Positions 2,958-51,427 of a stretch of 64,000 bases of DNA are shown in pieces. Origin of the DNA: an uncultured virus (IMG/VR IMGVR_UViG_3300034101_005937) (Duplodnaviria; Heunggongvirae; Uroviricota; Caudoviricetes); the IMG/VR virus record IMGVR_UViG_3300034101_005937, positions 1-64,000 of that record; one strand, 5' to 3'. The translations under genes were made by a program, and so were the position numbers. The notes beneath the pieces are model-generated. The model searched no databases. It was not told the origin of the DNA and saw only the letters and a program-made list of their open reading frames with translations. Within the stretch, counting starts at the first letter, position 1, and each line of letters begins with the position of its first letter.

Positions 2958-4277
2958 GTGAACCAAGACTTTCTTACCTTTGAAAAAATGTTCGACGCTT
3001 TTAGCGTTGAGCCATATGTTTTTTTACAAAATTTAAATGAACCCGATTTGACTGACAGAAAAAATCTCTTATTAAATTTACAGTTTTCTGGACCCAAAGG
3101 GTCTAAATTTGAAATAAAATTACATAAAGATAATGCGTGTTCATTTGTACACCGATTTAATTCATGTTTGGAGAAATTTAATCGTCCAATTGTTTGTTTG
3201 GATGCAAAATTATTTCATTCTTTTTGTATTAAAGTTGGTTGTAATATCTTGCCAGATAGAACTAAGTTTTTCGACTTAAATTGGTTTGTTGATTATTCAG
3301 ACATAAAAAGTAGTTTTTCTACTTTCTCTGAAGTTCATTCAATCTTTATGAAGTTCATTAAGTCAGATTTAATGGAAGTTTATAGAAATGTATATCAACA
3401 ATTGATTTGCTCAACTGTTCCGCTGATGGAGAATGAAGGCATCATTCTTGATGATTCAGCTAGTTTTATTTTTCCTTATTATTCATCCAAATTTCAGGAA
3501 AACGGAAGACTTAATTCAAGTCTAGCTTCAGATAGGAATTTTAATCCTCATGGGATGACTAATGAAATAAAGAATAACCTTATCTTGCCTAATGATGATG
3601 AAGTTTTTGTTGCGTTTGACTTTAAAGCACTTGAGTTATATGTACTTGCATTTTTATGCAAAGACAGTAATCTGAATACATTACTTTATAACACATGCCA
3701 TCCTTATGAGCAGATAGCACAATATGTCTTAAATTTAAGCAATTTTGCAGATGAAAATTTGAAGGAACTAGGGAAAAAGATATTTTTGCCAGCAATTTAT
3801 GGAATTTCTGCTAATAAATTGTCAGAACTTTTAAATTGTTCAGCTATTGAGGCTAGTGATTACTTAAAGAAAATGAAGTCTATATTTAGTAAATCTTTTG
3901 ATTACGTCAGTGGTTTTATGGGTCAAGCTACCAACTTTGGTCATTGTATTGATTATTTTAATAGAAAGAAAAGTTTTAATGTAGAAGAATCTTATAAAGC
4001 AATGAATTTTTGTATTCATTCACCAGCAGCTACATTGTGCTTTATCAAGATGAATGAACTTAGTAATATAAAAACAAATGATTTCAGACTATTGTTTTCA
4101 ATTCATGACTGTTTCGTTTTTGCTGTTAAAGAAAAAAACGTCAATGAATCAATCAGTGTTATAAAAACAAAATTGGAAGAAGAATTTAAGGAACAAAAGG
4201 GTCTTAAGTTATTTGTTGATATAAAAGTTGGTAATAATCTATCCAACTTGAAAAATTTTAATTTAAATTTGACTTAA
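2958..4277 (+). CDS. divergent family A DNA polymerase-like protein
   Basis: GRLNS, motif A FDFKALEL, motif B KELGKKIFLPAIYG, motif C SIHDCFVF. Confidence 0.8.
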   Translation: MNQDFLTFEKMFDAFSVEPYVFLQNLNEPDLTDRKNLLLNLQFSGPKGSKFEIKLHKDNACSFVHRFNSCLEKFNRPIVCLDAKLFHSFCIKVGCNILPDRTKFFDLNWFVDYSDIKSSFSTFSEVHSIFMKFIKSDLMEVYRNVYQQLICSTVPLMENEGIILDDSASFIFPYYSSKFQENGRLNSSLASDRNFNPHGMTNEIKNNLILPNDDEVFVAFDFKALELYVLAFLCKDSNLNTLLYNTCHPYEQIAQYVLNLSNFADENLKELGKKIFLPAIYGISANKLSELLNCSAIEASDYLKKMKSIFSKSFDYVSGFMGQATNFGHCIDYFNRKKSFNVEESYKAMNFCIHSPAATLCFIKMNELSNIKTNDFRLLFSIHDCFVFAVKEKNVNESISVIKTKLEEEFKEQKGLKLFVDIKVGNNLSNLKNFNLNLT

Positions 4278-9582: not shown

Positions 9583-10104
9583 ATGAAAAGTTTTCAAGAA
9601 TATTATCTTATGCGAGAAAATGCTGTTAATACCATCAACATAGAAGAAGTTGCTGCTGGTCTAAAATTTTTACCAACTACTAAACAAAATAAAAATTATA
9701 ATTATGTTGCTACAGATGAAAATATGCCTCCTTTTTCCTACACAGTATCACAAGAGTCAAAACCGATTGTTACTGTTACCGAGGATGGCGAAGAAACTAC
9801 TAATACAGTTGAAGTTAATGACATTATTGTGAGTGGACCTAGTCGTGAACAATATGTTGTTAAGCCTGAAAAATTTTCAAAATCTTATGTAGGAAACATT
9901 GGTGGACCTGTGCGTCCAGAACAAAGTCCTAGAATGGTTGCTTTGTACACAGGTAATGAACATGTTGAGTTCATTTCGCCTTGGAACAAAAAAATGACTT
10001 TGAAACCTCAAGATTATCTTGTTAAAGAGGACGAAGGCAAATTTTATAGAATCGCAAAGTATGAGTACGGACAAACATACAATCCACTCGGTCAACAAGG
10101 ATAA
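9583..10104 (+). CDS. PGDYG-like protein with capsid-targeting-like N-terminus
   Basis: MKSFQEYYLMRE; GPSREQYVVKPEKF..Y and LKPQDYLV..YRI..TY. Confidence 0.55.
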   Translation: MKSFQEYYLMRENAVNTINIEEVAAGLKFLPTTKQNKNYNYVATDENMPPFSYTVSQESKPIVTVTEDGEETTNTVEVNDIIVSGPSREQYVVKPEKFSKSYVGNIGGPVRPEQSPRMVALYTGNEHVEFISPWNKKMTLKPQDYLVKEDEGKFYRIAKYEYGQTYNPLGQQG

Positions 10105-10151
10105 TTTCTTGTTTATACACTAAATAGTTTTGTAAAAATCAGGAGAATCAT

Positions 10152-10850
10152 ATGAAGTTTCATGAATATGTTCAGTTAAGAGAAGGTGCTGGAGATCATA
10201 TTTTTGCTGACGAAGCAACGGTTTTTCATCATCGTGATAAGGCTCATGGTAATCCTTTTACTTTAGGAATACCAGAAAAACGAATTGAAAGAACAAGCAT
10301 TATTGTAAGTGTAAATCAACCTTCAGAAACCAATGGATATAACTATGACATTCATACAAAAAGTGGAAGCATTTATACTATAAAAGATTTCTCGATTGAT
10401 AATGATGGCGAATTTGATGTAGAATCACTTTTTGTAAGATTTAATTTAAAACCTGTTCCGGGTTCTAAGTATGATCGTTATCTAAATAAACAAAAGGCAG
10501 AAGCAGCGCCATCGACAGATACGTCAGCACAATCAACTCCTCTTGGGGAAAATGAATCAAAAAGGATCATCATCCGTGAATTTCAACAATTGATTAAAAA
10601 ATTAATAGATAATAAAGACTCGATTATGGAAAAATATGCAAGCAATCCTGCTATTGCAAGTTGGATGGAAAACTTTTTAAGTAATACAGCAATTGTAAGC
10701 AAAAAATTTAAAGAACAAGTTATATCAAATAATTACCCAGAAAAATTAAAAATACATATTAAAAATTTAGAAGAAGCAAAACAAAGTGATGAAAACATGA
10801 TTGGTTATTTGTACAATGTTGTTCAAAATTTTAGAACTAAACCATTCTAA
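10152..10850 (+). CDS. putative internal head protein
   Basis: MKFHEYVQLRE N-terminus; TAAATA at 10121-10126. Confidence 0.55.
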   Translation: MKFHEYVQLREGAGDHIFADEATVFHHRDKAHGNPFTLGIPEKRIERTSIIVSVNQPSETNGYNYDIHTKSGSIYTIKDFSIDNDGEFDVESLFVRFNLKPVPGSKYDRYLNKQKAEAAPSTDTSAQSTPLGENESKRIIIREFQQLIKKLIDNKDSIMEKYASNPAIASWMENFLSNTAIVSKKFKEQVISNNYPEKLKIHIKNLEEAKQSDENMIGYLYNVVQNFRTKPF

Positions 10851-10862
10851 CAAAGGATTCGA

Positions 10863-11429
10863 ATGAAATTTCATGAATATGTTCAATTAAGAGAATCTCA
10901 ATTGGATGAAGGCAGACTTGGTTTGCTTGGTGGTTTAGCGTTAGGTGCAGCTTCAATGTTTGCTGGTCAATCTAAAGCGGAAGAACCTTCTGTTCATCAT
11001 TTTTCGGGTTCTACGTTGACGAACCCAATTACGTCTCACAAGCAACTTGGTGATGACGAACGATTTATTAAATCTTGGACAATGTACAAGGAACAAATTA
11101 TTAGAGCAGTTAAAAGAGATCCTCATGTGCAGGATCTTTTGATTGAAATTATCGAGGAACATCATCAAGGCAAGATGGAAGCTGTTGTTGAGATTGAAGC
11201 AACAATTGAAGCCCCTTCAAAAGAAGAAGCAAAACAAATGTTAATTAGATTGATCATGCGTGAAACTGGCAAAATGAATATGCAAGGGTCAGCTATTAGA
11301 GGATTAAAGAAGATATTTGTAGATAAGAATGAAAACGCATTATACGCTAAAATAATTCGAGAGTTTTCTAATGCTGTTCATCGAGTAAAAATTAAAATCA
11401 CATCTAATGACGCAACGATTGAACCTTAA
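10863..11429 (+). CDS. putative internal head protein with hydrophobic segment
   Basis: Same MKFHEYVQLRE, then LDE-GRLGLLGGLALGAASMFA. Confidence 0.55.
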   Translation: MKFHEYVQLRESQLDEGRLGLLGGLALGAASMFAGQSKAEEPSVHHFSGSTLTNPITSHKQLGDDERFIKSWTMYKEQIIRAVKRDPHVQDLLIEIIEEHHQGKMEAVVEIEATIEAPSKEEAKQMLIRLIMRETGKMNMQGSAIRGLKKIFVDKNENALYAKIIREFSNAVHRVKIKITSNDATIEP

Positions 11430-11447
11430 ATCTGAATGATAAGTATT

Positions 11448-11879
11448 TTAATCGTTATTTGCAGCACGAACGCTTGATGTATTAACTTGCGTTACATCAA
11501 CGACGATATTTCCTTTTCCATCATCGCTTTGCACTTCGGCTACGATACCTGATGCACGACCAAATTGTCGTAAAAGTTCTTCTCTAACTTGATTCATAGC
11601 TTCTTTTTTTGCTTCTTGAGATGAACCGCTATAATTCCTGAAGCTGAAAGACCAAAAATAGGTCTGACCTTTTTCATTTTTTTCGTGCTCTACGGAAACA
11701 GAAGAATTTCCTATTTGTTGACTTGCTGGTTGTTTTAGTTTAGATGAAGGTAGTAATCCAGCAGCACCGGCAGCTAAAGTTGCACCAGCACCTATTCCTG
11801 CAATCCATCTTTTAAGAGATTCATGTAATTCGTTATCTCTTTCTTCCAACCATTCGGTAAATCGTAAAGGTATTGACAT
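11448..11879 (-). CDS. putative internal head protein with hydrophobic segment
   Basis: LRFTEWLEER; IAGIGAGATLAAGAAGLL; TAAATA on minus strand at 11908-11913. Confidence 0.55.
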   Translation of the reverse strand: MSIPLRFTEWLEERDNELHESLKRWIAGIGAGATLAAGAAGLLPSSKLKQPASQQIGNSSVSVEHEKNEKGQTYFWSFSFRNYSGSSQEAKKEAMNQVREELLRQFGRASGIVAEVQSDDGKGNIVVDVTQVNTSSVRAANND

Positions 11880-27462: not shown

Positions 27463-27780
27463 ATGTTATCATTTAAAAAATATATGAATCAAATTGAAGA
27501 AGCCGCAGCTACTATTCCAGCTGTAGGAACAACTAGTGCTACTACTAAGACACCAGCATCTACCAAGCCTATAAATCCAGCTACTAGAACTGCTCTTGAA
27601 ACAGCAGCAAAAGCCAATCCAGTTGCTCTTCGTCTATTTTCTACGGGAGATCAAAAAGGCGCAATAAAAAAATTAAGAGAAGATCCTAAATTTTTAACAG
27701 CAATGGCACAGGTGACTGCTGCTAATCCTGCTGCCAACGCCGCTGCTTTAGTTAATGCTGCTTTGGGTGGAAATCCATGA
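27463..27780 (+). CDS. Ala-rich putative internal head protein
   Basis: MLSFKKYMNQIEE; TAAATA at 27452-27457. Confidence 0.6.
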   Translation: MLSFKKYMNQIEEAAATIPAVGTTSATTKTPASTKPINPATRTALETAAKANPVALRLFSTGDQKGAIKKLREDPKFLTAMAQVTAANPAANAAALVNAALGGNP

Positions 27781-29166: not shown

Positions 29167-31242
29167 ATGGTTAGTTTGACACAGTTTGCTAATAACAACA
29201 ATCTTGATGATTATAAGAAGCTCCATGAAGAGCTTGGTTTTGAAGAATATCTTAACAGATGTTACAGTAATCCAAAATTAGCTCGTAATTCTCATCAAAG
29301 AATTTACGACATGATCACTTCATTCGGAACAGAAGAAATTGACAAGTATCGCAAGAAGATCGTAACCTATAAATTTTTTGAAAATCATGAAGAAATTAAA
29401 GTTTTTGGTATCGAAGATCAGCTTGAGTCTTTGGTTGCTCATTTCAAGGGTGCCGCAGGACATTACGGTCCAGAAAAAAGAATCCTTCTTCTATGCGGAC
29501 CTGTAGGTTCTGCTAAGTCTACTATTTGCCGATTAATCAAGCGTAATATGGAAGATTATTCCAAGACTGAAAATGGCGCTTGGTATTCCTACAAGTGGGT
29601 CAATCTGCCAACAGGACAAAATGGCTTCTACACAAGCGACACTTGTGAATGCCCAATGAACGAAGATCCAATCAAACTTCTTCCTCTTGCAGTAAGAAAG
29701 CAAGTACTTGAGGAATTGAATAAGATTCATAGGGATAATGCTGATCCATCACAAAGAACAACTCTCTACAGCCTCAATGTAGAAGGTGAAATTAATCCAA
29801 AATGTAAGTTTTTCTTTGACAAATTGCTCAAGATGTACAATGGAGATTGGGTTAAAGTTGTAAATAACCACATTGTTGTTGTCAGAAAACAATATTCTGA
29901 AGCAGATAGAGTTGGTATTGCTTCTTTCCAGCCTAAAGATGAAAAGAATCAAGATAGCACAGAACTTACTGGTGATATCAATTTTGCTCTACTTCCAACA
30001 TTTGGAAGTGATTCTGATCCAAGAACATTTAATTTCGATGGTGAATTCTGCGTTGCAAATCGTGGAGTTATCGAATTTATTGAAATGCTAAAGCTTGAAA
30101 CAGCTTTCTTGTACGATCTTCTTGGAGCATCACAAGAAAAGTCAATTAAGCCTAAAAAGTTTTCTCAGATTAGCATTGATGAAGCTATCATCGGACATAC
30201 CAATATTCCTGAATACGAAAAGTTAAAGAACAATCAGTACATGGAAGCTTTGAAGGACAGAACTGTAAGAATCGAAATTCCTTATCTCCTAGAATGGAGC
30301 AAGGAACTCAAAGTATTAGAACAAGATTATAATTCAAATAAGATCAAGCAGCATATCGCTCCTCACACATTACAGATTGCTGCACTGTTTTCAGTCCTTA
30401 CAAGGCTTGAAGATGACAAGGACAATAAGATCACTTTGACAGAAAAAGCAGACCTCTATGATGGAAAGATGTTGCCCGGATGGACAATTGATAGAGTTAG
30501 AGAGATTAAGGATAAGAACCCAAATGAAGGTATGACTGGCATGTCTGCAAGATATGTACAGGACAAGATTTCTTCTACCTTATCAAGCAGACATGATTAT
30601 ATTAATCCATTCATGGTGCTGAATGCTTTGAAGAGTGGACTTGAGAATCATTCTCTTATTTCTAACAAAGATTTGGTACGCAAGTATCAAAACTGCATTA
30701 CTCTTGCAACTAAGAAGCTTGATGACATTCTTAAGAACGAAGTTCAAAAGGCTCTTGTGGGAGATGAAGAGGCAATTGTCAGGCTTTGTGCAAATTATAT
30801 CGACAATTTGATGGCTTACATCAATAAAGCAAGAATTACCAATAAGATTACTGGACGAGAAGAAAGTCCAGATGAAAAGCTAATGCGATCTATTGAGAGC
30901 AAGATTGATGTTCCAGAATCTACTTGTGATGATTTCCGGCGTATGATTGCAGCCTTTATTGGCGATCTTGCAGTAAAAGGTAAGACTTTCAGATGGGATA
31001 GCAACCCTCTTCTCAAGAAAGCTTTGGAATCAAAGTTGTTTGAGGATACAAAAGATCACATTAAATTGAGTGCATTTTCATCTGGAGCAACAACAGTTGA
31101 CCCAGATGTTCAAAAGAAGATTGATGCGGTCAAGCAAAGACTTGTTGAAAAATATGGTTATAATGAGCAGAGCGCAACAGATGTGCTTGATTATGTAAGC
31201 AGTATTTTTGCAAGAGGCGATTTAGCAGAAGACCTATTCTAA
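29167..31242 (+). CDS. prkA: PrkA/YeaG AAA+ serine protein kinase
   Basis: KRILLLCGPVGSAKST, PKDEKNQDSTELTGD, GEFCVANRG..EFIEMLK, EALKDR, IAPHTL. Confidence 0.95.
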   Translation: MVSLTQFANNNNLDDYKKLHEELGFEEYLNRCYSNPKLARNSHQRIYDMITSFGTEEIDKYRKKIVTYKFFENHEEIKVFGIEDQLESLVAHFKGAAGHYGPEKRILLLCGPVGSAKSTICRLIKRNMEDYSKTENGAWYSYKWVNLPTGQNGFYTSDTCECPMNEDPIKLLPLAVRKQVLEELNKIHRDNADPSQRTTLYSLNVEGEINPKCKFFFDKLLKMYNGDWVKVVNNHIVVVRKQYSEADRVGIASFQPKDEKNQDSTELTGDINFALLPTFGSDSDPRTFNFDGEFCVANRGVIEFIEMLKLETAFLYDLLGASQEKSIKPKKFSQISIDEAIIGHTNIPEYEKLKNNQYMEALKDRTVRIEIPYLLEWSKELKVLEQDYNSNKIKQHIAPHTLQIAALFSVLTRLEDDKDNKITLTEKADLYDGKMLPGWTIDRVREIKDKNPNEGMTGMSARYVQDKISSTLSSRHDYINPFMVLNALKSGLENHSLISNKDLVRKYQNCITLATKKLDDILKNEVQKALVGDEEAIVRLCANYIDNLMAYINKARITNKITGREESPDEKLMRSIESKIDVPESTCDDFRRMIAAFIGDLAVKGKTFRWDSNPLLKKALESKLFEDTKDHIKLSAFSSGATTVDPDVQKKIDAVKQRLVEKYGYNEQSATDVLDYVSSIFARGDLAEDLF

Positions 31243-31257
31243 TTTAAGGGGACATCA

Positions 31258-32448
31258 ATGCCAAGAAGGATTGATTCCGACCATAAAGACTTTAGAGATA
31301 TTGTCAGCGGTAGAATCAGAAAAAACTTGAAGAAGTTTATCAAGAGTGGCGAAGTATTTCGCCACCGTGGTAAAAACGGTAAAGTTTCAATCAAAATACC
31401 ATCAATTGACATTCCTCATTTTCTTCATGGTAGGAATCCTAATGGTGTTGGGCGTGGAGATGGCAAAGATGGCGACACCATCGGTAAAGATGGTGGACCA
31501 AAAGGAAATGGTAATGGTGCTGGACAAGATGAAAGCGAAGGCATCATCGTCCAGCTAGACATGGAAGACATTCTTCATTTCATGAAAGAAGAACTCAGTC
31601 TTCCTGATATCAAACCAAAAGAAAATGCCAATCTTGAAGATGTAAAAATCAAATATAATAACATTTCTCTTGTTGGTCCAGAATCTCTTCGTCACACTCG
31701 CAGAACAATGCTTCAGGCTTTGAAACGTCTTTGTGGCACTGGCGAAATCAACGAAATGTACGAAATTCCCGGCTTTAAAGATAAAGTCAGGATGATTAAT
31801 CCTATTAATAGTGACAAAAGGTACAGACAATATAACGAAATTGTCTTTCCTTCAAGCAACGCAGTTGTTATCTTTGCTAGAGATGCTAGCGGATCAATGG
31901 ATGATAATAAAGTTTCTGTTGTGTCTGATATGGCTTATTGGATCGACACTTATATCAGAAGTTTTTATCAAAGAGTCGAAAGACTTTATGTTTGGCATGA
32001 CGTTGCTGCTCACGAAGTAGATGCAAAGGACTTCTATAGGATAAGAAACGGTGGCGGCACCACATGTTCTACAGCTTTAGATCTAGTTGCAAAACAATTT
32101 GAGAATAGATTTCCTCCTAACAATTGGAACATCTATTTCTTTTATTTCACAGATGGTGAAAATTATGATAATGATAATGAAAAGTTTGTGTCTCTGCTGA
32201 AAAAGGAATTTCCTCAAAATATAGTCAACTTGGCTTCTATAACACAAATTGGTTCGTACACTTATAAAGGAACTGTTGCAGAAGCAGTGGAAAAAGAAAT
32301 TATAGAAGGAACATTAGGAGATAATGTGATTGTCACAGAAATTCCGCATGGTGTTCTTAAGGATGAAGAAAAACGGAACGAAGCAATACTAGGTGCTATT
32401 AGAGAAATTCTTGGAAATCCGTTCACAAGTGCGGATAGGACATTTTAA
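31258..32448 (+). CDS. yeaH: YeaH/YhbH (DUF444) vWA protein
   Basis: Gly-rich linker, DASGSM MIDAS, GGTTCS, WNIY.FYFTDGEN. Confidence 0.92.
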   Translation: MPRRIDSDHKDFRDIVSGRIRKNLKKFIKSGEVFRHRGKNGKVSIKIPSIDIPHFLHGRNPNGVGRGDGKDGDTIGKDGGPKGNGNGAGQDESEGIIVQLDMEDILHFMKEELSLPDIKPKENANLEDVKIKYNNISLVGPESLRHTRRTMLQALKRLCGTGEINEMYEIPGFKDKVRMINPINSDKRYRQYNEIVFPSSNAVVIFARDASGSMDDNKVSVVSDMAYWIDTYIRSFYQRVERLYVWHDVAAHEVDAKDFYRIRNGGGTTCSTALDLVAKQFENRFPPNNWNIYFFYFTDGENYDNDNEKFVSLLKKEFPQNIVNLASITQIGSYTYKGTVAEAVEKEIIEGTLGDNVIVTEIPHGVLKDEEKRNEAILGAIREILGNPFTSADRTF

Positions 32449-32450
32449 AA

Positions 32451-34046
32451 ATGAGTGATAAATTCTTATTTGGTTCACCTGTTCTGTTTGGATCAGCAAC
32501 CACCCCCGGTGTGCCAATTCCAGAAGAACTACAGAAACATATCCCTACCATTTTTAAAGCTTGTAAAGATTTTGGTCTTGATTTTTATCCAACCATTGTA
32601 CAAATGCTTTCTCATGATGAAATGAGTGAAGTTGCAAGCTATGGTGGATTTGCAGTAAGATATCCACATTGGAAGTTTGGCGCTGAATACGAAGAAATGC
32701 AACGTGGTTATCTGCACGGCAACCATAGAATATATGAAATGGTTATCAACTGTAATCCATCATATCTATATTGTCTAAATTCAAACACAATTCTTGATAA
32801 TATTACGGTTATTGCTCATGCTCTTGGGCATGTTCATTTCTTCAAGAATAACATTCATTTTTCTAGAACTAATACGAATGCTCATAATGAACTTGCCAAC
32901 AATGGATCTAATGTAAGAAAATACATGTCTCGATATGGAAGAGAAACTGTTACAGAATTTATTGATAATTTAATGCGTCTTGAAACACTTGTCGATCCAA
33001 TGAATATTTGGAAAGAAAGAAAAGCTAAAGAAGTTGTAATCACAGATAAAAGAGAATACTCTTTCCCAAGAAGAATTAAAACAAAAAATGATTACATGGA
33101 AGACTGGATCAATACAAAAGAATTTATTAATGCTCAAAATACAAAAATTGAAGAACGAGAAATATTAAATGATCTGAATATGATGGCTAACCCAGAATCT
33201 GATGTATTTGGGTATATTAAAGAAAACGCACCATTCAAACCTTGGCAACGAGATATTGCAGAAATTCTTTACAACGAAGCAATTTATTTTAGCCCACAAG
33301 GTAAAACTAAAGTATGCAACGAAGGTCTAGCCTCATGGACAGACTACAATATTATTGCTAAACAAGGCTATTGCAGCCTTGGACAAGAAGCAGAAGACGC
33401 TGGGATTGTTGAATATTCAATTCATAAAGCAGGTGTGCTTGGAGGCAAATATAGCACCAATCCATATAAACTTGGCTTTACTCTTTTGATGGATATTGAA
33501 GAAAGATGGAACAAAGGCAGATTCGGAAGCGAATATGAATCTTGCACAGATCCATTACTTAAAGAAAATTGGGATCAAAAATTAGGATTAGGTAAAGAAA
33601 AGGTGTTTGAAGTTTGCAAAAACTATGATGATTTTCAGTTAATTAATGAATTCTTTACTAAAGATTTTTGTGAAAAGAATGAGTTCTTTGAATATAAAAG
33701 ATATCCAACTGGTGAAGTTAAGATTGAAAGTCATGATTACAAGAAGATTAAAAAGAATCTTCTTAAGAAACATATCAATAGAGGATTGCCAAACATTAAA
33801 TTAGTTGAACCTAATTTTAAAGGGAATATTTTCTTTATACAACATTATTCTGATGGTTTAGAATTGTATAAACCATATGCTTATGAAGTAATTAAATCTA
33901 TTTGCCTTTTAATGAGACAACCTGTAGCATTGCAAACAATCAATCACAATAATGATGAAGTGTTTTATTATTGTCAAGATATGAATGGTGACTATTCGCT
34001 TGCTGATCCCAAGACGATTAGTAGGGAGCAATTGATGCGGCTATGA
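32451..34046 (+). CDS. spoVR: SpoVR/YcgB family protein
   Basis: RYPHWKFG, IYEMVIN, AHALGHVHFFKNN, YFSPQ..TK..NEG.AS, NPYKLG. Confidence 0.93.
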   Translation: MSDKFLFGSPVLFGSATTPGVPIPEELQKHIPTIFKACKDFGLDFYPTIVQMLSHDEMSEVASYGGFAVRYPHWKFGAEYEEMQRGYLHGNHRIYEMVINCNPSYLYCLNSNTILDNITVIAHALGHVHFFKNNIHFSRTNTNAHNELANNGSNVRKYMSRYGRETVTEFIDNLMRLETLVDPMNIWKERKAKEVVITDKREYSFPRRIKTKNDYMEDWINTKEFINAQNTKIEEREILNDLNMMANPESDVFGYIKENAPFKPWQRDIAEILYNEAIYFSPQGKTKVCNEGLASWTDYNIIAKQGYCSLGQEAEDAGIVEYSIHKAGVLGGKYSTNPYKLGFTLLMDIEERWNKGRFGSEYESCTDPLLKENWDQKLGLGKEKVFEVCKNYDDFQLINEFFTKDFCEKNEFFEYKRYPTGEVKIESHDYKKIKKNLLKKHINRGLPNIKLVEPNFKGNIFFIQHYSDGLELYKPYAYEVIKSICLLMRQPVALQTINHNNDEVFYYCQDMNGDYSLADPKTISREQLMRL

Positions 34047-35152: not shown

Positions 35153-36496
35153 ATGCACATGAATATTGTTGGCTTTGAACATTTGCATTTACACAGCGAA
35201 TACAGTATCCTTGACGGTTTTGGGAAAATTTTAGAATATTGCGACAGATGGAGCACACATGGTGATTACCTTTGTGTTACCGATCATGGACTCATGGCAT
35301 CAATCCCAAGTCTAATCTCACAAACAGAACAATTTGATAAAAAGAAGTTTAAGCCAGTTTTTGGCTGCGAGCTTTACGTTAATCCTATTCACACAGAAGC
35401 AACTGAGAACGAAGAAGAAAGAAATAACTTCATAAAGAGTCTTTCTCCTGATCAATACGAAGCATTCAAAACATCAAGTCATATATTAGCCATTGCCGTT
35501 TCAAACAAAGGTTACGAAAACTTAACTAAACTTTGTAGCCTTGGTTGGTCACAAGGTTTTTATAGGAAACCTAGAGTTAATCATGAATTATTAAAGAAAC
35601 ACAGAGAAGGTATAATCTTTACTAGTTGTTGTTGCGCTTCAGAAGCAGCAAGAGCTTTGAAGCTATATGGAAAAGAAAAAGCAGAAGAAATGGTTCTGAA
35701 ATACAAGGATATGTTTGGTGATAACTTTTATCTTGAAATGATGTTGCTTGATTTTGAGTATCAGAGAGGTTATGACCAATTTTTAGTAGAAATGCATCTT
35801 AAGCATGGCATTCCTATGATTATGAGCAATGATGTTCATTATGCATATGAGGAAGATAGCAAGTATCAGACAATAATGATGTTGGTTAACACTAAGAGAA
35901 CATTAGCTGAAATTGAAAAGTTGAAGTCAGAAAATGCTGATGTTTTTGAATTGCAGGATAGAAACCTTTGGATGAAGACTGAAGATGAAATGAACAAGAA
36001 GTGGCTTGAGAAATATTCTGATGTAATTCCTTTGGAGATATTTGAACAAGCCAAGATGAATACTGTTAAGATATGTCGTATGGCAGAGAATGTTAAGTTG
36101 GATAGAAGTGTTAAATTGCCTAAGATTATTGATGAAGAGGAGAAATTGAAAGAATTAGTAATGCAAGGTTTGAAGAAGAGAGGGATTAGTAAAACTAATG
36201 ATGTTTATTTCAAGAGAATATTAGAAGAATTAGATTTGATTTTTAGAAAGCAATTTTCATCTTACTTTTTAATTGTTAAAAGTTTTACTGATGAAGCTAG
36301 GAGAATTAGTCATGAGATTACTGGTTTGGATGGTGTTTATGCGGTTGGACCCGGTCGAGGTTCTGGTGCTGGTTCTCTCGTCTTATATTTACTTGGTGTT
36401 ACTGACGTAGATCCAATCAGACATGACCTACTGTTCTCTAGATTCCTCTCAGAGAATAGAGGTAGTCAAGCTGTACTGAAGTTTAGTCAATCTTGA
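35153..36496 (+). CDS. dnaE: DNA polymerase III alpha, N-terminal part (PHP domain and start of palm)
   Basis: HLHLHSEYSILDG, TDHG, GCELY, NDVHY, GPGRGSGAGSLV.YLLGVT.VDP..DLLFSRFL; stops before PDxDxD. Confidence 0.93.
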   Translation: MHMNIVGFEHLHLHSEYSILDGFGKILEYCDRWSTHGDYLCVTDHGLMASIPSLISQTEQFDKKKFKPVFGCELYVNPIHTEATENEEERNNFIKSLSPDQYEAFKTSSHILAIAVSNKGYENLTKLCSLGWSQGFYRKPRVNHELLKKHREGIIFTSCCCASEAARALKLYGKEKAEEMVLKYKDMFGDNFYLEMMLLDFEYQRGYDQFLVEMHLKHGIPMIMSNDVHYAYEEDSKYQTIMMLVNTKRTLAEIEKLKSENADVFELQDRNLWMKTEDEMNKKWLEKYSDVIPLEIFEQAKMNTVKICRMAENVKLDRSVKLPKIIDEEEKLKELVMQGLKKRGISKTNDVYFKRILEELDLIFRKQFSSYFLIVKSFTDEARRISHEITGLDGVYAVGPGRGSGAGSLVLYLLGVTDVDPIRHDLLFSRFLSENRGSQAVLKFSQS

Positions 36497-36503
36497 TGTT
36501 TAT

Positions 36504-37856
36504 TTATTGTTTGAGTAAAGAAATTACTTCTGGATTTGTTCCTGTGTAATACTTTCTTAAGATTTGTCTCATTTTATTTTTGTTAGATGCATAATGAAGC
36601 AAATTATAAACATTATCAGAATTTAGTTTATCAATATTTTCTTTACCTAATATTCTTGCCATTTCTTCTATGTCATATGCATTACGAAGCAAACTATAAA
36701 CATCACTATTAGTTAATTTATTAATATTTTCTGGACCTAATATTTCTGCCATTTCTGCCATTTTATTTTTGTTAGATGCATAATGAAGCAAATCAGAAAC
36801 ATTTTTAGCAGTTAATTTATTAATATTGTCTGGACCTAATATTCTTGCCATTTGACCTTTGTTTTTTGTATAAATAAGCAAGTTATAAACATGATCACCA
36901 GATAATTTATTAATATTGTCTGATGAAAATATTCCTGCCATTTCATCTTTGTTTTTTGTAAGTCTAAGCAAACTATAAATATCATCATCAGATAATTTAT
37001 TAATATTGTCTGAACCCAATATTCTTGCTATTTCATCTTTATTTTCTGCATAATAAAGCAAAGTAGAAATATCGTCATTAGACAATTCTGGTTTATATTG
37101 AATTATAATTCTTGCTATTTCATCTTTGTTTTCTGCGTCATCAAGAAATTTTTGAATATCATTATTAAACAAATTTCTATTTTTTAACAATTTTTCAAGT
37201 TGGTTCAAAGGAATTTTGTTTATATCAGGTAATGGCTTCCTCAATATTTGTGGAATCACAAGTATCCTTCTCAACGCAGTACCAGTAAAAACAACACCTT
37301 GAGTTGGTTCGTTTTCATGAATTGTTTTAGTATTATGATCTACAAATCCATCAATCTCACATTTTCTTAAATTAGCATTCCATAAAACAGGTTTATGGAA
37401 TGCCATTTCTCTGGTCACAAGCCATAATTTAGAATAATTACTACGCAATTCATAATTGTTCTCAAGGCGTTCTATTGCAAGATCAACTTCTTCTTTTGCA
37501 AACACATTAAGTAAATCCAATCCTTTCTGATTATTTATATCAGAAGTCATGTGTAATATTTTTTCTGGTCTTGTAAACTCGCAAACATTAAGATAAGGTT
37601 GTTCTCCAGCAAATGGAACATTCATTTTCTTTTCAATGACAAAATCTATTGGATAAAAGTAAATGCCAAGAGGCGTATCGTATTTACTTTTTGGATTGAT
37701 GCCAACTTTATCAATCATTGTAAACGTAACAACAAGATTTTCTGGATTTGGATGAGTTTCTTGTATGTGTTTCAATGCAGTCAATGGCTCACGAAATTCT
37801 TGGTCCTTGACCGTTATTGTTTCAGATAAAATTAACCAAGATTTAAAGTTCATCAT
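36504..37856 (-). CDS. putative internal head protein with C-terminal 30-aa tandem repeats
   Basis: MNFKSWLILSE; TPLGIYFYP domain; repeats such as LSDDDIYSLLRLTKNKDEMAGIFSSDNINK. Confidence 0.7.
   Translation of the reverse strand: MMNFKSWLILSETITVKDQEFREPLTALKHIQETHPNPENLVVTFTMIDKVGINPKSKYDTPLGIYFYPIDFVIEKKMNVPFAGEQPYLNVCEFTRPEKILHMTSDINNQKGLDLLNVFAKEEVDLAIERLENNYELRSNYSKLWLVTREMAFHKPVLWNANLRKCEIDGFVDHNTKTIHENEPTQGVVFTGTALRRILVIPQILRKPLPDINKIPLNQLEKLLKNRNLFNNDIQKFLDDAENKDEIARIIIQYKPELSNDDISTLLYYAENKDEIARILGSDNINKLSDDDIYSLLRLTKNKDEMAGIFSSDNINKLSGDHVYNLLIYTKNKGQMARILGPDNINKLTAKNVSDLLHYASNKNKMAEMAEILGPENINKLTNSDVYSLLRNAYDIEEMARILGKENIDKLNSDNVYNLLHYASNKNKMRQILRKYYTGTNPEVISLLKQ
36560..37150 (-). 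repeat. about 7 imperfect tandem 90-bp coding repeats
   Basis: gataatttattaatattgtctga at 36901 and 36991; ttgttagatgcataatgaagcaaat occurs twice. Confidence 0.85.
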
Positions 37857-37858
37857 TT

Positions 37859-38152
37859 TTAGTCCAAGTGGCTAACTTCATAGTCATCAAATTTACTTGT
37901 CTTTGAAAAATCAATACTTGGTGTTCCTAAATCGCCAAAAGGCTTATCTGTGTTATAACCTTTAGCTCTATAGGGCAAACTCTTTTTGCCTTGTAGTGGG
38001 AAACCGTAATGCTTACCTTTGACAAATGTGTCTTCTGGTGCATTCGGATCAGGAAAAGCATAACTTTTCATGATGTCTTGCATTTTCTTACGAGAATCAC
38101 TGATTTCTAAATCTTTTTTATAAGCAGCTAATGATTTAATTTTTTTTGCCAT
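37859..38152 (-). CDS. basic hypothetical protein (late)
   Basis: SD GAGGTG; TAAATA on minus strand at 38170-38175. Confidence 0.65.
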   Translation of the reverse strand: MAKKIKSLAAYKKDLEISDSRKKMQDIMKSYAFPDPNAPEDTFVKGKHYGFPLQGKKSLPYRAKGYNTDKPFGDLGTPSIDFSKTSKFDDYEVSHLD

Positions 38153-38185
38153 TGTTCACCTCTATGCTTTATTTACGATTTTCGT

Positions 38186-38214
38186 TTGATTTTTACAACC
38201 AAATCTAGTAAAAT
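38186..38214 (+). promoter_or_regulatory. sigma70-type promoter for the dnaE C-terminal part, leaderless configuration
   Basis: TTGATT-17-TAAAAT, 6 nt, then ATG 38221. Confidence 0.65.
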
Positions 38215-38220
38215 ACCTAT

Positions 38221-40689
38221 ATGAGCATTACAATTGAAAATTTTACAAAACTGATCAAACATCAGTTTAACAAATTTCCTTTTTGCAATGATCCAGAACA
38301 TAAGTTCAGGCTCAGATATGAATTAATTGAAATTGAAACACAAAATTGCTGCGATTATTTCATCGACCTCGTAAGACAAAAAAAGAAATTACCCAATGAA
38401 AACAATCTCCTTGTTCCAGTTCTTCTCGGAATATGTGATGAATTTAACATAAACGAAATGCCTAAAACAAAAACAAATGAATTTCCAGACGTTGATATTG
38501 ACTTTATAGCAGATGTTAGAGATTATCTTAAAAATACATACGCACCTAGTGAATACAAAGCTGTAAATACTTGTTCAATCGGAACTTATGGAAGATATGC
38601 TCTTAAGAGCGCCATGATTGACATGGCGAGAATATATGGATTAGACAGAAATGAAGTTTTAAATATTACTAAGAATTTAAGGATGAGAGATGAAGATGGG
38701 GATGAATTGACTTATGAGGAAGCTGTTGATACTTTTCCTGAATTAAAATCATATCTTGGAAAATATCCAGAATTAGCATTAGCAGTTCAAAAGTTGCTTC
38801 ATAGAATTAGAAATACAGGCAAACATGCTGGTGGTGTTATTATATGCAGAGATGAAATTAACAAATTCGTTCCCTTAATGAAAACTACTGGTGGTGATCA
38901 CTTAGTATCACAATTTGTTGAAGGATTAGCGACACAAGAACTTGGACCGCTTGGTCTTGTAAAATTTGATTTGTTGGTAATTAGTGCTTTAGAACAAATG
39001 GCATATACTGCAAAGATGGTAAAAGAAAGACATAATGTAAAATTCATTTCAGGCAATAATGAAGATTGGGATGATATATCTTATCTGAATGATCCAAAAT
39101 CAATAGCAAATGCTAATGACGCAGATCTTATTGGTGTGTTCCAGTATGATAGCAGTGGCATTAGAGAGGTCGTAAAAGCCTCTGGGATCGATAGTTTTAA
39201 TGACTTAGTAGCAATCGTCAGTTTGTATCGTCCGGGTCCGCTTAACGCAGAAATGGATAAAGTATTCATTAGAAGAAAAACAAAACAAGAAGAATACACA
39301 CTTCATCCCGCTCTTGCACCAATTCTTTCTTCTACATATGGAATTATTGTCTACCAAGAACAAGTTATGAGAATCCTTAACGTAGTTGGTAAAATTCCAC
39401 TCAAAGACTGCGAAACAATCAGAAAAGCCATTTCAAAGAAAAAAATATCAAGCTTTATAAAATATAAAGAACAGTTTATTGAAAACGGCATCCATGTACT
39501 TGAAGCAACAAGAGAAGAAGTAGCACAAATTTTCTCTGAAATTGAAGCTTTCGCCGCTTATGGATTCAACCTAAGTCATGCCACAGCTTATACTTACGTT
39601 TCATCACGCCAACTATATTTAAAGACACATTATCCGCTTGAATTTTATGCTGCTCTTCTGATGTTAGAAAAGGATGAGGAGAAGAAAAGAGTTTACATTA
39701 CAGATGCTTACAAGCATGGAGTGATTGTTAATCCTGTTGACATAAACAAAAGCAGTTATAATTTTTCTATTCAAGACAATCAGATTTATGCAGGGTTTGG
39801 CAACATTAAGGGAATTGGAGAGGATACAGCTAGAGATATAGTATTAAAGAAGCCTTATAAGGGCATACACGATTTTCTACAGCGGTTTGGATCGGATGCT
39901 AGTGTATTGAAAGCTTTGATTCCTTTGCGTGTGTTTGGGGTCAATACTGAGAAGGATTACAAGTTCTGGCAAGCGTATTCTCTTCAGAACAAGAAAGTTA
40001 TTGACAAGAATAAAAGATCTAATAAAAGTTATTTGGATCTTAAGAAAAGTATTATGAGTTTATTGCCAGAAAAGTATTATAATTTGGAGTTATCTGAAAG
40101 TTTGTTTGGTATACTTTCAAGTATAAATCCTAGTCCAGACGTATTGAAATTGCATAAAAAATGGAAGAGGATGACACAGAAAGGAACAGCCGAGGTAGAG
40201 ATTAGTTATGATGATTTTGATGAAGATGAAATTACAATTGATGATAAAGAATTGATTCTTGATCTTAACGACATTCATTTGGCAGAAAGAAAGCATTATG
40301 GTTTTCAGTTTACTTGTCGATTGTCTACATTCAAAATGTACGATCCTAGTTGTACATTTGCAAATTCTATTGAATTGCATGCTAATGGTGTTCGCAGGCA
40401 CAATGTTCAGATTGAAGTTTTAGATGTGAATGTTAAGTATTCTAAGAATAACAAATCATATTGTCAGTTAATTGGCATGGACAGTGAGTTTAGGATAGAA
40501 AGAATTAATGTATGGGCAGACGATTATGTGATATTTAAGCATATTCTAGAAAAGAATAATTGTTTATCAATACAGGTTTCTCCACCAACCAATGGATTTT
40601 CTACTTTTAGTTTAAACTCTCCTCCTCAACATAAAAGATATCTTTTGCCATCAAACACTCTTGATTACAGAATTGTTTTAATAAACTAG
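38221..40689 (+). CDS. dnaE: DNA polymerase III alpha, C-terminal part (catalytic palm, fingers, HhH, OB)
   Basis: PDVDIDF, GKHAGGVII, GLVKFDLL, GVFQ, LYRPGPL, YQEQVM, YGFNLSHATAY, IKGIG. Confidence 0.93.
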   Translation: MSITIENFTKLIKHQFNKFPFCNDPEHKFRLRYELIEIETQNCCDYFIDLVRQKKKLPNENNLLVPVLLGICDEFNINEMPKTKTNEFPDVDIDFIADVRDYLKNTYAPSEYKAVNTCSIGTYGRYALKSAMIDMARIYGLDRNEVLNITKNLRMRDEDGDELTYEEAVDTFPELKSYLGKYPELALAVQKLLHRIRNTGKHAGGVIICRDEINKFVPLMKTTGGDHLVSQFVEGLATQELGPLGLVKFDLLVISALEQMAYTAKMVKERHNVKFISGNNEDWDDISYLNDPKSIANANDADLIGVFQYDSSGIREVVKASGIDSFNDLVAIVSLYRPGPLNAEMDKVFIRRKTKQEEYTLHPALAPILSSTYGIIVYQEQVMRILNVVGKIPLKDCETIRKAISKKKISSFIKYKEQFIENGIHVLEATREEVAQIFSEIEAFAAYGFNLSHATAYTYVSSRQLYLKTHYPLEFYAALLMLEKDEEKKRVYITDAYKHGVIVNPVDINKSSYNFSIQDNQIYAGFGNIKGIGEDTARDIVLKKPYKGIHDFLQRFGSDASVLKALIPLRVFGVNTEKDYKFWQAYSLQNKKVIDKNKRSNKSYLDLKKSIMSLLPEKYYNLELSESLFGILSSINPSPDVLKLHKKWKRMTQKGTAEVEISYDDFDEDEITIDDKELILDLNDIHLAERKHYGFQFTCRLSTFKMYDPSCTFANSIELHANGVRRHNVQIEVLDVNVKYSKNNKSYCQLIGMDSEFRIERINVWADDYVIFKHILEKNNCLSIQVSPPTNGFSTFSLNSPPQHKRYLLPSNTLDYRIVLIN

Positions 40690-43667: not shown

Positions 43668-44806
43668 ATGCTGTTGATATAAAAGAAGTTATAGAATCTG
43701 CCTCTATAAGAGGTAATTTTATTAGAGAGAAGTTTGATTCAAGGAATATTCCTGATAATCTACAAAAAATAATTGTAATACCAATATTTCCAGAATTAAG
43801 TCATCTTTTAGTTTTTGCAAATTACATATTTCCTAGTTTAAAGAATGATATTAATTTTAAAGACAAGTACATTATAATTGTTACTTGGAAAGGATTTTCT
43901 AAGTTTTTTGCACAAGCAGATGAAGTATGGTCACAGAAATCTGTTGATAATATTGATAGATTTTATGAAAAAACTGAAGGCATGTTAAATAAATCAGATA
44001 CAATAACTGTCATTTTTAGAAGTTTGAATGAATTTTTCAGAAACGTAATTGACCCATCTAGATTTGCAAATTTATTTCAGAATGGCTTCAATAGATCAAA
44101 TATAGGTAAAAATTCTATTGATATAGTTAAATCAAATTTGCCTAATATAAATTATTTGAATCAAAGTATTGTTAAAAGTATTTCAGAATTAGGTGAAAGA
44201 AAGGTTTTTATAATTCCTTTTAAATTCATCAAGCAATGGCACTTAGGTAAGGTAATATTGCATAAATTATCGTCTTCTTTTTACCAAAGTGTGATAGAAA
44301 GTTTTACTTCTAAAAACATTAAATGTGTTGTTTTAAAGAATTATATGACGTTTGATATTTCTAAGGATTTTATTGACAATCCTAATGTTTTGTTTGTTCA
44401 AGAAGATGATTGGTTTTTGGTGATGGCGTATATGCTTTCAACTAAGATATTTGTTGATTTCTTTTCTGGTCTTAATTCAATGTCAATGTATTGTGGTTGC
44501 AGAAGTATTAGTATTGCGGAAAGAAATTTTAACGTAGTTTCTAACCAAAAAGATATAGAATTATGTATGACAGATTCAAATATTGATACTAAAGTCTTTA
44601 CGTTTTTCGATTTAAATTATAGTTTGCTTAATAAAAAGTTATTTTTCATAGATAAATTAATTTATGAGATTGTAAATACTAACCTTGACAAGCATATCGA
44701 AAATAAAAATAAATATTCAGTTGATTTGCAGGCAAGTATAGTTGAAAGAGTAAAACAGTTTCACCCCAAGTTTATAGGCATTAAAAAGAAAGTGATTGAG
44801 GAATAA
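43661..44806 (+). CDS. GT9-like glycosyltransferase paralog (divergent)
   Basis: IIVTWKG..FFAQADEVW parallels the upstream gene; FVDFFSGLNSMS. Confidence 0.4.
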   Translation: MVNAVDIKEVIESASIRGNFIREKFDSRNIPDNLQKIIVIPIFPELSHLLVFANYIFPSLKNDINFKDKYIIIVTWKGFSKFFAQADEVWSQKSVDNIDRFYEKTEGMLNKSDTITVIFRSLNEFFRNVIDPSRFANLFQNGFNRSNIGKNSIDIVKSNLPNINYLNQSIVKSISELGERKVFIIPFKFIKQWHLGKVILHKLSSSFYQSVIESFTSKNIKCVVLKNYMTFDISKDFIDNPNVLFVQEDDWFLVMAYMLSTKIFVDFFSGLNSMSMYCGCRSISIAERNFNVVSNQKDIELCMTDSNIDTKVFTFFDLNYSLLNKKLFFIDKLIYEIVNTNLDKHIENKNKYSVDLQASIVERVKQFHPKFIGIKKKVIEE

Positions 44807-44807
44807 A

Positions 44808-45086
44808 ATGGCACGAAAGGCAAATGTTAGAGTAGTTTCAAGAGACAACGGTTATGACGATCATCGTGACAGGTCTTTTAAAGCTTTGATGAGTGCATTC
44901 CGTCAAGCAGTCAATAAGGCTGGTATCTTGCGTGAATACAGGCTTAGAGAAACATATGAAAGCCCATCAGAGAAGTCACGCAGGAAGAGGCGTGAGAAGG
45001 AAGCTACTATTCTTAAGAGTCAGATGAGAGAAAGCTTCCCTGTTAAAAACAAAAAGGAAAAGCCATGTCCGAAAAACAAAAAATAA
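44808..45086 (+). CDS. rpsU: ribosomal protein bS21
   Basis: FKALMSAFRQAVNKAGILREYRLRETYESPSEKSRRKRRE; SD GAGGA. Confidence 0.88.
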   Translation: MARKANVRVVSRDNGYDDHRDRSFKALMSAFRQAVNKAGILREYRLRETYESPSEKSRRKRREKEATILKSQMRESFPVKNKKEKPCPKNKK

Positions 45087-47968: not shown

Positions 47969-48271
47969 ATGGCAGATTTGAAGAAGGTTACTGGCTGTAA
48001 GCCTTGTGGCTCACAGGTTTTGATTGAACTCTTGACAACCCAAGAACTAGCAAACACAAAGTTGTTCTTGACTAACAAGAAGCAAAAAGATGATTTTCAG
48101 GCAATTGTTTTGGCAGTAGGTCCATCTATCAAGACCGAAAATTATGGCTTTAATGTCGGTGATAGAGTTGTTATCTCAGGCGGCGCAGTTCCTGTTCCAG
48201 ATTATGGACCAGAATCTGAACGTGAACGAGTTTTGGTTGAACCATCAACCATCAAAGCTGTACTGGTTTGA
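47969..48271 (+). CDS. groES: GroES/gp31-like co-chaperonin
   Basis: KPCGSQVLIE, AIVLAVGP, NVGDRVV, IKAVL. Confidence 0.75.
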   Translation: MADLKKVTGCKPCGSQVLIELLTTQELANTKLFLTNKKQKDDFQAIVLAVGPSIKTENYGFNVGDRVVISGGAVPVPDYGPESERERVLVEPSTIKAVLV

Positions 48272-48737
48272 AAGAAACATTTTTAATTTTATAGGCGTTT
48301 CTTAAATATTGAGGACCACAGTATGACGCTTCTATACGAGTTATATTTGATGAATCAGAGCTAATGTCCTTTCCGTGTCTTTGGAAAGCGACTTTTAGCT
48401 TGGTCTTATTAGGGATGATAGGCAAATCCCCTTGAATTGATCTGTATTGACCGGGACTAAAGTAAAGTTTAGTCCCGTCTTCTAATTCAATTTCAATTAT
48501 TTTTTTCTTGTCATTCAAAACAGTTACCATTTTCTCTTTTACAACTTCTGGTATGCCAAATTCACCATCATTTATAGCTAAGTCTAAATCTGGTAAGTGG
48601 TTCGGTCTTCCAGAGTATCCAAATGTTGAAACAGCTTGTGATCCGGTGTCACTGCTTGTTTGTACAGCTCCGGGGAACGGTTTGTTAAAACCTGAAAATG
48701 GGTTTTTATTTTCTATAAATTTTTTGAATCCAATCAT
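48252..48737 (-). CDS. putative internal head protein
   Basis: Likely start MIGFKKFIEN. Confidence 0.55.
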   Translation of the reverse strand: MIGFKKFIENKNPFSGFNKPFPGAVQTSSDTGSQAVSTFGYSGRPNHLPDLDLAINDGEFGIPEVVKEKMVTVLNDKKKIIEIELEDGTKLYFSPGQYRSIQGDLPIIPNKTKLKVAFQRHGKDISSDSSNITRIEASYCGPQYLRNAYKIKNVSFKPVQL

Positions 48738-48772
48738 TATCTTAGTATGTATCATTTTGTAAAGGAATTTTT

Positions 48773-50537: not shown

Positions 50538-50993
50538 ATGAAAGTAAGTAGTTTTTTTAAGAATCTTGATACTGTTTCAGAAGATAATAAAGTAGCTTTT
50601 AAGACTCCTGATGGTAAATTTATACCATTTCATTTTCATGTCACAGAAGCTGCTACTATCAATAAAAAATTTAGAGATTGTGGCGGCGTAGAACGTAATG
50701 AAAATTATGCTTCTATTCAATTATGGGTGGCTAATGATTTTGATCATCGCATTAATGCTGGCAAGATCAGGAAGATCATTCTTAGTACATTAATAGAAAA
50801 TGAAATGGACATGGATTTAGTAGTTGAATACGAAACAGATACATTATCAACTTATAATATTGATTCTGTTGAAATCATCAAAAACACGCTTGTGTACAGT
50901 TTAATTAAAAAGAAGACCGAATGTCTTGCTCCAGACAAATGTGGCATTACAGCCCCAAAAAAGCCATGCTGTGGCGGAAATAAATGTGGTTAG
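50538..50993 (+). CDS. DUF6428-like Cys/His protein
   Basis: PFHFHVTE, DCGG, QLWVANDFDHR, ECLAPDKCG..CCGG..CG. Confidence 0.65.
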   Translation: MKVSSFFKNLDTVSEDNKVAFKTPDGKFIPFHFHVTEAATINKKFRDCGGVERNENYASIQLWVANDFDHRINAGKIRKIILSTLIENEMDMDLVVEYETDTLSTYNIDSVEIIKNTLVYSLIKKKTECLAPDKCGITAPKKPCCGGNKCG

Positions 50994-51427
50994 TCTAAAG
51001 TTTTGATAAAATCTGTCAATTCTGGAATGTTATAGGTTTCTATATGATGAGTTGAGTAGTTTGAAGCATAAACCATGCAAAAAACTTCTTCACAATTCAT
51101 TTTAGGTTTTTTATTATAAAACTTTTTGCAAAGTTTATTCCACTCTTGTTTTTGTTTTTCTGTAACAAGTTTTTCAAAAACAAGATGTGCGATTTCATGA
51201 AGTGTTGTAAATTCTCTACCATAATTCCAAGGTGCTGCTACCACTATGTCATATTTATTAATATTTCCTATGTGATTGGTATCATTATCTAGAGTGTTTT
51301 TGCAAGTAAGCTTTATTTTAAAGTTTGCTAATAACATGCGATGTTTTTTAGGCAACTTATCAATTGTTGCTTTTAAATTTTTTTGTTCTTCAGATTTTTG
51401 TTCTACGAACTGAATAAAACTTCTCAT
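50990..51427 (-). CDS. HEXXH zinc metallopeptidase-like putative internal head protein
   Basis: MRSFIQFVE; TTLHEIAH ... EEVFC. Confidence 0.65.
   Translation of the reverse strand: MRSFIQFVEQKSEEQKNLKATIDKLPKKHRMLLANFKIKLTCKNTLDNDTNHIGNINKYDIVVAAPWNYGREFTTLHEIAHLVFEKLVTEKQKQEWNKLCKKFYNKKPKMNCEEVFCMVYASNYSTHHIETYNIPELTDFIKTLD

Follow-up and report, generated by a model that had tools for sequence, protein, structure and literature searches.

The split family B DNA polymerase gp43A/gp43B of Aeromonas phages 25 and 44RR (PMC2988022) and the split NrdA-a/NrdA-b of phage Aeh1 (PMC3045599) work as unspliced pairs. For the alpha subunit of DNA polymerase III (Pol III), Iyer et al. 2021 (PMC7824862) predicted a minimal form split into a nucleoside triphosphate (NTP)-binding and a Mg-binding protein in group 2.2 jumbo phages, which replicate with a family B enzyme. 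Cyanobacterial dnaE likewise consists of two genes, with a split intein at the break (PMC3919608). Here we analyze a full-length DnaE that is divided over two genes in a 64,000-nucleotide stretch of DNA (hereafter, the window), the first 64 kilobases (kb) of the 77,851-base record IMGVR_UViG_3300034101_005937 of an uncultured virus of the class Caudoviricetes. To our knowledge, the family C replicases on record are either single chains or halves that an intein rejoins. In the open-licence PubMed Central and bioRxiv literature, we found no description of a full-length DnaE that is split and bears a duplicated palm module, and nothing of this layout appears in the passages of PMC3201878, PMC3919608 and PMC12926913 that deal with a 'split'.

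The enzyme of the window resembles the group 2.2 protein in that the polymerase core is distributed between two stand-alone proteins from distant genes, an N-terminal, NTP-binding one and a C-terminal, Mg- and template-binding one, that are thought to reconstitute a single enzyme. By its description, the group 2.2 form is minimal, is devoid of the remaining Pol III domains and exists beside a family B replicase, whereas here the PHP, fingers, HhH and OB domains are retained; in addition, a palm module is duplicated here, a feature that the excerpts of PMC7824862 do not mention for the group 2.2 form. The enzyme of the window is therefore not this minimal form, but the two may share a breakpoint or a lineage. 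The 2021 prediction lowers the novelty of a two-subunit enzyme: unspliced split enzymes and a minimal split Pol III alpha were known or predicted already, and the advance lies in a split enzyme of full length, in its duplicated module and in how widely this occurs. As in gp43A/gp43B and Aeh1 NrdA, an essential enzyme is encoded as two chains, and where tails matter for assembly of those pairs, a new tail is present here. Those pairs differ in belonging to other enzyme families and in that their assembly was shown biochemically and that of the present pair is predicted; furthermore, the tails of gp43 and NrdA arise from insertion of a mobile endonuclease, in contrast to an origin here from a duplicated piece of the enzyme itself. 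Such intein-free enzymes encoded in pieces and the split minimal Pol III alpha predicted by Iyer et al. are better points of comparison than the cyanobacterial split intein chosen in the initial annotation of this locus, which was made from the sequence without database searches. Unlike the cyanobacterial case and fractured genes with split inteins, no intein is present at the break and no ligation is predicted. We take the cyanobacterial split-intein site to be the one at YGFN..H; as annotated initially, this motif is unbroken in the C chain, as YGFNLSH at residues 447-453.

The two intact open reading frames (ORFs), hereafter the N gene and the C gene, lie on the same strand (Table 1) and are separated by 1724 nt, which contain two antisense ORFs (450 and 97 amino acids). 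The N gene ends with DLLFSRFLSENRGSQAVLKFSQS followed by a stop codon, and the catalytic PDVDIDF begins at residue 89 of the C chain, as described in the initial annotation. The Pfam family PF07733 is cut in two, with profile positions 1-100 on the N chain and 97-259 on the C chain. The PHP, palm, thumb, fingers, HhH and OB parts are all present in DnaE order, spread over the two genes. Single-chain DnaE proteins with an active PHP domain (Escherichia coli 2HNH, Thermus aquaticus 2HPI and Mycobacterium tuberculosis 5LEW) and single-chain phage relatives (LR756511.1, L045, L046, L055 and L066) have the same domain order, fold and checked catalytic motifs; what sets the present enzyme apart from all of these is that it is encoded as two chains, of which the C chain has 88 additional residues at its head and the N chain a new tail. 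Instead of the single polypeptide expected of a DnaE catalytic subunit, there is a stop codon and a separate start, and no joining device was found. Two intact, selected ORFs share one active site, as in genes-in-pieces enzymes; the enzyme appears to work like these and to be a DnaE by its domains and residues rather than by chain number.

The division is a trait of an entire clade. We compiled a C-type set, consisting of the window protein and the best 120 of 1623 matches (44-96% identical, with lengths up to 1439 residues), and an N-type set of the 120 best matches in a search limited to proteins of 245-783 amino acids. The PDxDxD motif is located at residue 69-97 in all 121 C-type proteins, none of which has a GRGS or PHP motif ahead of it; the breakpoint and the lack of GRGS in the head noted for the window thus extend to its relatives. 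Conversely, the N-type proteins contain GRGS (114 of 120) or its ARGS form (6 of 120), none has PDxDxD after this loop, and the chain terminates in a conserved new tail. A search for longer proteins yielded 61 close matches, of which 51 are N chains with cis-inteins and 10 are full-length. Among the loci fetched with 10-kb flanks, there are 41 distinct N and C pairs with a spacing of about 0.35 to 9.6 kb, the upper end of which is limited by the length of the flanks; in searches of whole records, the spacing reaches about 15 kb in G006 and about 20 kb in G001, and in the complete 511-kb genome G002 the two genes are on opposite strands. Each of five large genomes contains one N and one C gene. 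In comparisons with three related loci (L001-L003), the ratios of nonsynonymous to synonymous polymorphism (pN/pS) are 0.02-0.25 for regions of the N gene, 0.11-0.19 for the C core and 0.09-0.19 for the head; values of 0.18-0.19 for the head stand against 0.16-0.19 for the core. Silent sites are close to saturation. By this measure, both genes are under purifying selection, which acts on the head much as it does on the catalytic core.

Scans of metagenome and genome contigs with the C alignment yielded mainly ordinary DnaE: 160 ORFs were classed, of which 146 are single-chain, 10 were left unclassed and 4 were flagged as C-type; among the latter, L183 is actually a single-chain protein with a variant loop, and L173, L251 and L252 are of the split type but point to no reliable host. 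The contigs of L251 and L252 are binned with Acidimicrobiaceae and Chloracidobacterium genomes and are probably phage contigs. Several C genes (L049, L073, L074 and L081) contain a second break further down, giving three-gene forms.

The residues of the polymerase active site are divided between the chains. In the N alignment (A2, 116 of the 120 proteins), R402, G403, S404, R430 and R436 are invariant (116/116), and in the C alignment (A1, the 84 of the 121 proteins that are intein-free and full length), D90, D92, D94 and D250 are invariant (84/84). Alignment to solved structures identifies D90, D92 and D250 with the metal aspartates of E. coli, where the ligands are D401, D403 and D555 (PMC3919608), and the incoming nucleotide is bound by R362, G363, S364 and R390 of the E. 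coli enzyme (PMC4374717). The PHP metal motif of the N chain is complete (H12, H14, D21, H45, E73, H110, C160, D227 and H229), with each position invariant or conserved in at least 90% of the 116 homologues. The counterpart of R436 is E. coli R396, which presumably also acts on the nucleotide-binding side. A nine-residue PHP motif is counted as active (PMC12926913), and the intact domain presumably proofreads. Cis-inteins are common in N genes, and P0253, P0262 and P0298 carry them directly ahead of the S404 equivalent. Inteins tend to occupy essential sites, and this location is counted in favor of the composite active site considered below.

Single-chain AlphaFold2 models of the two chains have mean predicted local distance difference test (pLDDT) scores of 88 and 86. 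The N model superposes on residues 1-398 of E. coli DnaE (Z 32.8, root mean square deviation (rmsd) 7.5, 375 residues aligned) and the C model on E. coli DnaE from residue 396 to 1077, with residues 705-822 matching OB folds. Together, the two models cover the entire core, to which the C chain adds residues 1-83 as surplus. Confidence is lowest in the junction parts of the lone models, namely, C residues 91-93 and 235-252 and N residues 435-447, the N tail having pLDDT below 50. Low-confidence catalytic strands and a low-confidence tail would be expected if these parts fold on the partner, which is not proof that they do.

In view of the divided catalytic residues, the occurrence of the split throughout the clade, the selection on both genes and the absence of marks of inteins or introns, we consider it likely that the two separately started chains assemble unspliced into one DnaE with a composite active site. 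The initial annotation proposed such a two-subunit enzyme with an active site formed in trans, and the evidence of the clade-wide split, selection and divided residues supports it; misassembly, inteins and splicing find no such support. The first chain would supply the nucleotide-binding GRGS loop and the arginines, and the second chain the metal-binding aspartates; in the heterodimer, the helices of the N chain would complete the palm and bring along an active proofreader. Both chains are presumably produced and bind each other. The C head and the N tail would then act as a clasp that replaces the lost peptide bond, a role as a putative interface to which we give slightly less than an even chance; otherwise, the head could be a folding cap or a placeholder on the free C chain.

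It is unlikely, in our estimation, that the C chain is instead self-sufficient, with the head replacing the missing palm half and the N chain being merely a detachable PHP proofreader. This possibility is suggested by the unbroken alignment of the C profile to residues 312-889 of E. coli DnaE, the confident fold of the head, an invariant N59 that, read by eye, lies near the expected place of S404, and the presence of a C gene with no detectable N gene in one genome record (G003; see below). Nonetheless, the head is devoid of GRGS and of both arginines in 121 of 121 proteins, the N chain keeps these same residues invariant although a mere exonuclease would not need them, and the catalytic strands are of low confidence in the lone C model. 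Of 16 superpositions on structures of family C enzymes, moreover, 15 have an aligned range that begins at residue 83-93 and leaves out the head, a weak argument given the rmsd.

A joining device that would restore an ordinary single-chain DnaE was sought at the levels of protein and RNA. Intein families gave no match in either protein or in six heads, which agrees with the absence of intein motifs noted initially. Ligation by a non-intein chemistry, with removal of the N tail and the C head, would have to act next to residue 87, ahead of F-P-D, which is E or D in 121 of 121 proteins and never the C, S or T expected after such a cut; the head, moreover, is helical and derived from DnaE. What speaks for ligation are the invariant polar residues of the head (E34, N59 and N62, with E37 and Q41 at 97-98%) and the register at the would-be junction, where R436-G437 followed by E87-F88-P89-D90 leaves three residues between the arginine and PD, as is usual in single-chain relatives. 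The latter coincidence is, however, to be expected if a single ancestral stretch gave rise to both copies. We regard ligation as very improbable.

The same register would suit joining of the halves as RNA, through a group I or group II intron or trans-splicing, or by ribosomal bypassing. At the gathering score, Rfam gave no match within the window. Silent sites vary as freely at both gene ends as in the core; variation dips mildly at N codons 435-437, and several core codons match this dip. Among the 41 pairs, no more than 5 comply with the rule for group I introns (U as the last exon base, G as the last intron base) at any one cut with the normal spacing. Furthermore, the stretch to be removed would encode the selected head, the distances to be bridged range from 0.35 to about 20 kb, and the genes are on opposite strands in G002. 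Such joining thus seems no more credible than protein ligation.

The source of the window is a metagenomic fragment, and no single contig among four sequencing runs spans the full stretch, which is all that favors a broken gene or an assembly error. The stop codon of the N gene is covered by independent contigs (X11, X2 and X5). One X16 contig carries both genes in the same order, without the 450-amino-acid gene, with position 36481 joined to 37858 over a 7-nt repeat that keeps F444. The layout is common to hundreds of relatives, which refutes an artifact, and both genes are under strong purifying selection, so that we give this explanation virtually no credence.

The C gene appears to have its own start signals. 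In the window, L002 and L003, a TTGATT-16/17-TAAAAT element and its 6-nt distance to the ATG are kept while the spacer diverges, and purine-rich, ribosome-site-like runs precede the C-gene ATG in L005, L014 and L016; altogether, 6 of the 7 loci inspected have such signals (3 promoter-like and 3 purine-rich), the start of the seventh, L017, not being displayed. The promoter assigned to the C gene in the initial annotation is, taken alone, no better than chance, given 22 such consensus sites in the region versus 20.2 in shuffled sequences; only the fact that L002 and L003 conserve it lends it credibility.

The head of the C chain was described initially as a degenerate copy of the end of the N chain. 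In the models, head helices 5-18, 25-40, 44-52 and 64-68 mirror N helices 328-342, 350-365, 369-390 and 409-413, and the pLDDT of the head is 81-89 over residues 11-80. BLASTP produced no alignment between the two duplicated segments of the window. Profiles did better: a profile of the N ends detects 37 of the 121 heads with E<0.01 (best 2.6e-6; best E of 0.54 for the reversed-head control) and the head of the window with E of 0.047, and a profile-profile comparison matched C residues 2-48 to N residues 326-373 (E 0.0007, probability 27%). In addition, the C profile reaches back to residue 312 of E. coli DnaE and the N profile extends forward to residue 397. The homology between the head and the palm is thus real and becomes clear at the family level; the first of the two motif pairs originally aligned is borne out by the profiles, whereas the register of the second, NLLVPVLLGICD and GSLVLYLLGVTD, was set by eye and is not aligned in this way by the profiles. 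Compared with the N chain, the head lacks the long helix, the GRGS loop and RFL..R. Its residues E34, F47, N59, N62 and L69 are fixed in 121 of 121 proteins, and E37, Q41 and P81 are present in 93-98%. Pfam searches with six heads alone gave a sole match, to PF07733 below threshold (L173, E 0.28), and a language-model search with the head retrieved PF07733 clusters at 0.90-0.91, which we treat as a lead.

Several observations weigh against the composite active site or its functional interpretation. One of the five records tested for both genes, G003 (430 kb, estimated 97% complete and classed as a provirus), has the C gene, and neither an N gene nor a PHP domain was detected in this record, which may be incomplete. 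The monomer superpositions, with whole-chain rmsd of 6-11 Å, tell little about the placement of the head, and for the window itself, the head shows weak homology. In free, quick trees, single-chain phage forms are placed inside the split forms. Finally, a short family A polymerase homologue (400-440 amino acids) is encoded in the window (Table 1) and in all five large genomes (L331-L335), so that the split enzyme need not be the sole polymerase. The neighborhood of the C gene in G003 (L092, L336) is rearranged; the contig of L148, considered as a source of the N gene of G003, is not assignable. The window's family A homologue has aspartates within words resembling motifs A and C.

The split enzyme is nevertheless presumed to be the main replicase. 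The family B polymerase domain PF00136 was found in none of the five large genomes (against 5 of 14 control rings), and neither was a recognisable beta clamp (PF00712), although a diverged clamp is possible; together with the single N and C genes in each, these absences favor the replicase role.

Single-chain phage relatives provide clues to the history of the split. One of these, LR756511.1, has 1183 codons, is about 50% identical and shares the gene neighborhood; in 11 of 11 fused ORFs, 39 residues separate GRGS from PD across a canonical junction. The trees, of 53 and 57 rows (intein-bearing and truncated rows excluded), recover the single-chain phage forms as monophyletic in both cases (Shimodaira-Hasegawa-like approximate likelihood ratio test, 99). 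When the long row L012 is left out, constraining the trees to a single split raises the log-likelihood by 15 and 10 units over the free trees, and a single origin is not rejected by the approximately unbiased test (p of 0.73 and 0.66). A single old split is the simpler reading of these trees, and the single-chain phage forms may have arisen by re-fusion. The split itself would go back to one ancestral tandem duplication of about 110 codons (corresponding to E. coli residues 312-400), with the catalytic loop then kept by the upstream copy and lost from the downstream one. An ancient, since-lost homing endonuclease may have caused the split; endonuclease families are matched by neither of the genes that separate the N and C genes in the window, other loci have different genes there, and no homing endonuclease is needed between the two, given that L002 has only the 97-amino-acid gene there.

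Conceivably, although we hold this more tentatively than the clasp, the duplicated palm half has changed places, the copy of the proofreader chain having been swapped into the active site and the displaced copy having become a docking module. Such a module, if real, would grip the tail of the first chain or cap the free second chain. In that case, the enzyme would be inactive unless the proofreader was bound, the two separately promoted genes would amount to an assembly switch for phage replication, duplication, domain swapping and division of labor would have been caught in the act within one active site, and engineers of family C polymerases would gain a natural site at which to split them. 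More generally, a full-length DnaE that is cut within the palm and kept in hundreds of lineages of huge phages would show that a two-protein active site is possible in this family, and would make it possible to test directly how partial duplication of a gene creates a new subunit interface. For annotation, the implication is that each half resembles a fragment or a pseudogene.

Table 1. Positions of the two polymerase genes, their parts and neighboring features in the window
Feature	Positions	Strand	Description
Family A polymerase homologue	2958..4277	+	short homologue
PrkA-YeaH-SpoVR trio	29167..34046		complete
N gene, 447 amino acids	35153..36496	+	PHP domain and first palm half; Pfam PF02811 at 10-197, PF07733 profile 1-100
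N-chain palm helices, residues 328-436	36134..36460	+	G401-R402-G403-S404, R430, R436; nucleotide-binding side of active site
N-chain new C-terminal tail, GSQAVLKF and stop	36461..36496	+	family pattern GG-K/R-x-hydrophobic-x-L-R/K-F
Antisense gene, 450 amino acids, C-terminal repeats	36504..37856	-	accessory, outside the polymerase; no Pfam or PHROG match above cut-off
Antisense gene, 97 amino acids	37859..38152	-	no family match (Pfam, PHROG); 81-85% identical in L002 and L003
Sigma-70-like promoter site, TTGATT-17-TAAAAT	38186..38214	+	consensus scan; 6 nt before ATG, predicted leaderless mRNA
C gene, 822 amino acids	38221..40689	+	head, second palm half, thumb, fingers, HhH, OB; PF07733 profile 97-259, PF17657, PF14579
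C-chain head, residues 1-88	38221..38484	+	degenerate copy of N palm helices, without GRGS and RFL..R
Catalytic PDVDIDF, C residues 89-95	38485..38505	+	from sequence
Ribosomal protein S21 gene	44796..45086		

The tail of the N chain comprises 11 residues in the window and is conserved across 114 tails (G437 in 99%, L442 in 87% and F444 in 96%); the final codons of the N gene after F444 come from each cassette that follows. In the window, this cassette is the 450-amino-acid repeat gene, which is variable: it is missing in L002 and in one X16 contig, and related genes replace it in L001 and L003. The X2, X5 and X11 contigs run from the start of this gene back to position 36494, like head-to-tail copies.

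Relatives of the window have genomes of up to 511-595 kb, and the window is therefore a piece of a huge phage genome. Near-identical DNA was found in at least 20 runs from 19 studies, almost entirely of lake or fresh water. The genes of the window include those for UvsX, DnaB, SSB, thymidylate synthase, PrkA-YeaH-SpoVR and ribosomal protein S21. The polymerase genes are flanked by the complete PrkA-YeaH-SpoVR trio and the ribosomal protein S21 gene. The antisense genes between the polymerase genes were initially called late, which is not borne out: a TAAATA before the 97-amino-acid gene is kept in L002 and L003, yet this word occurs 115 times in the 78-kb contig. A start word of the form MK(S/T)F.E(Y/W) follows TAAATA in many genes (9583-11879, 27463-27780, 36504-37856, 48252-48755 and 50990-51427); we take it to resemble the capsid-targeting start of T4 internal proteins, and TAAATA to resemble a T4-type late promoter.

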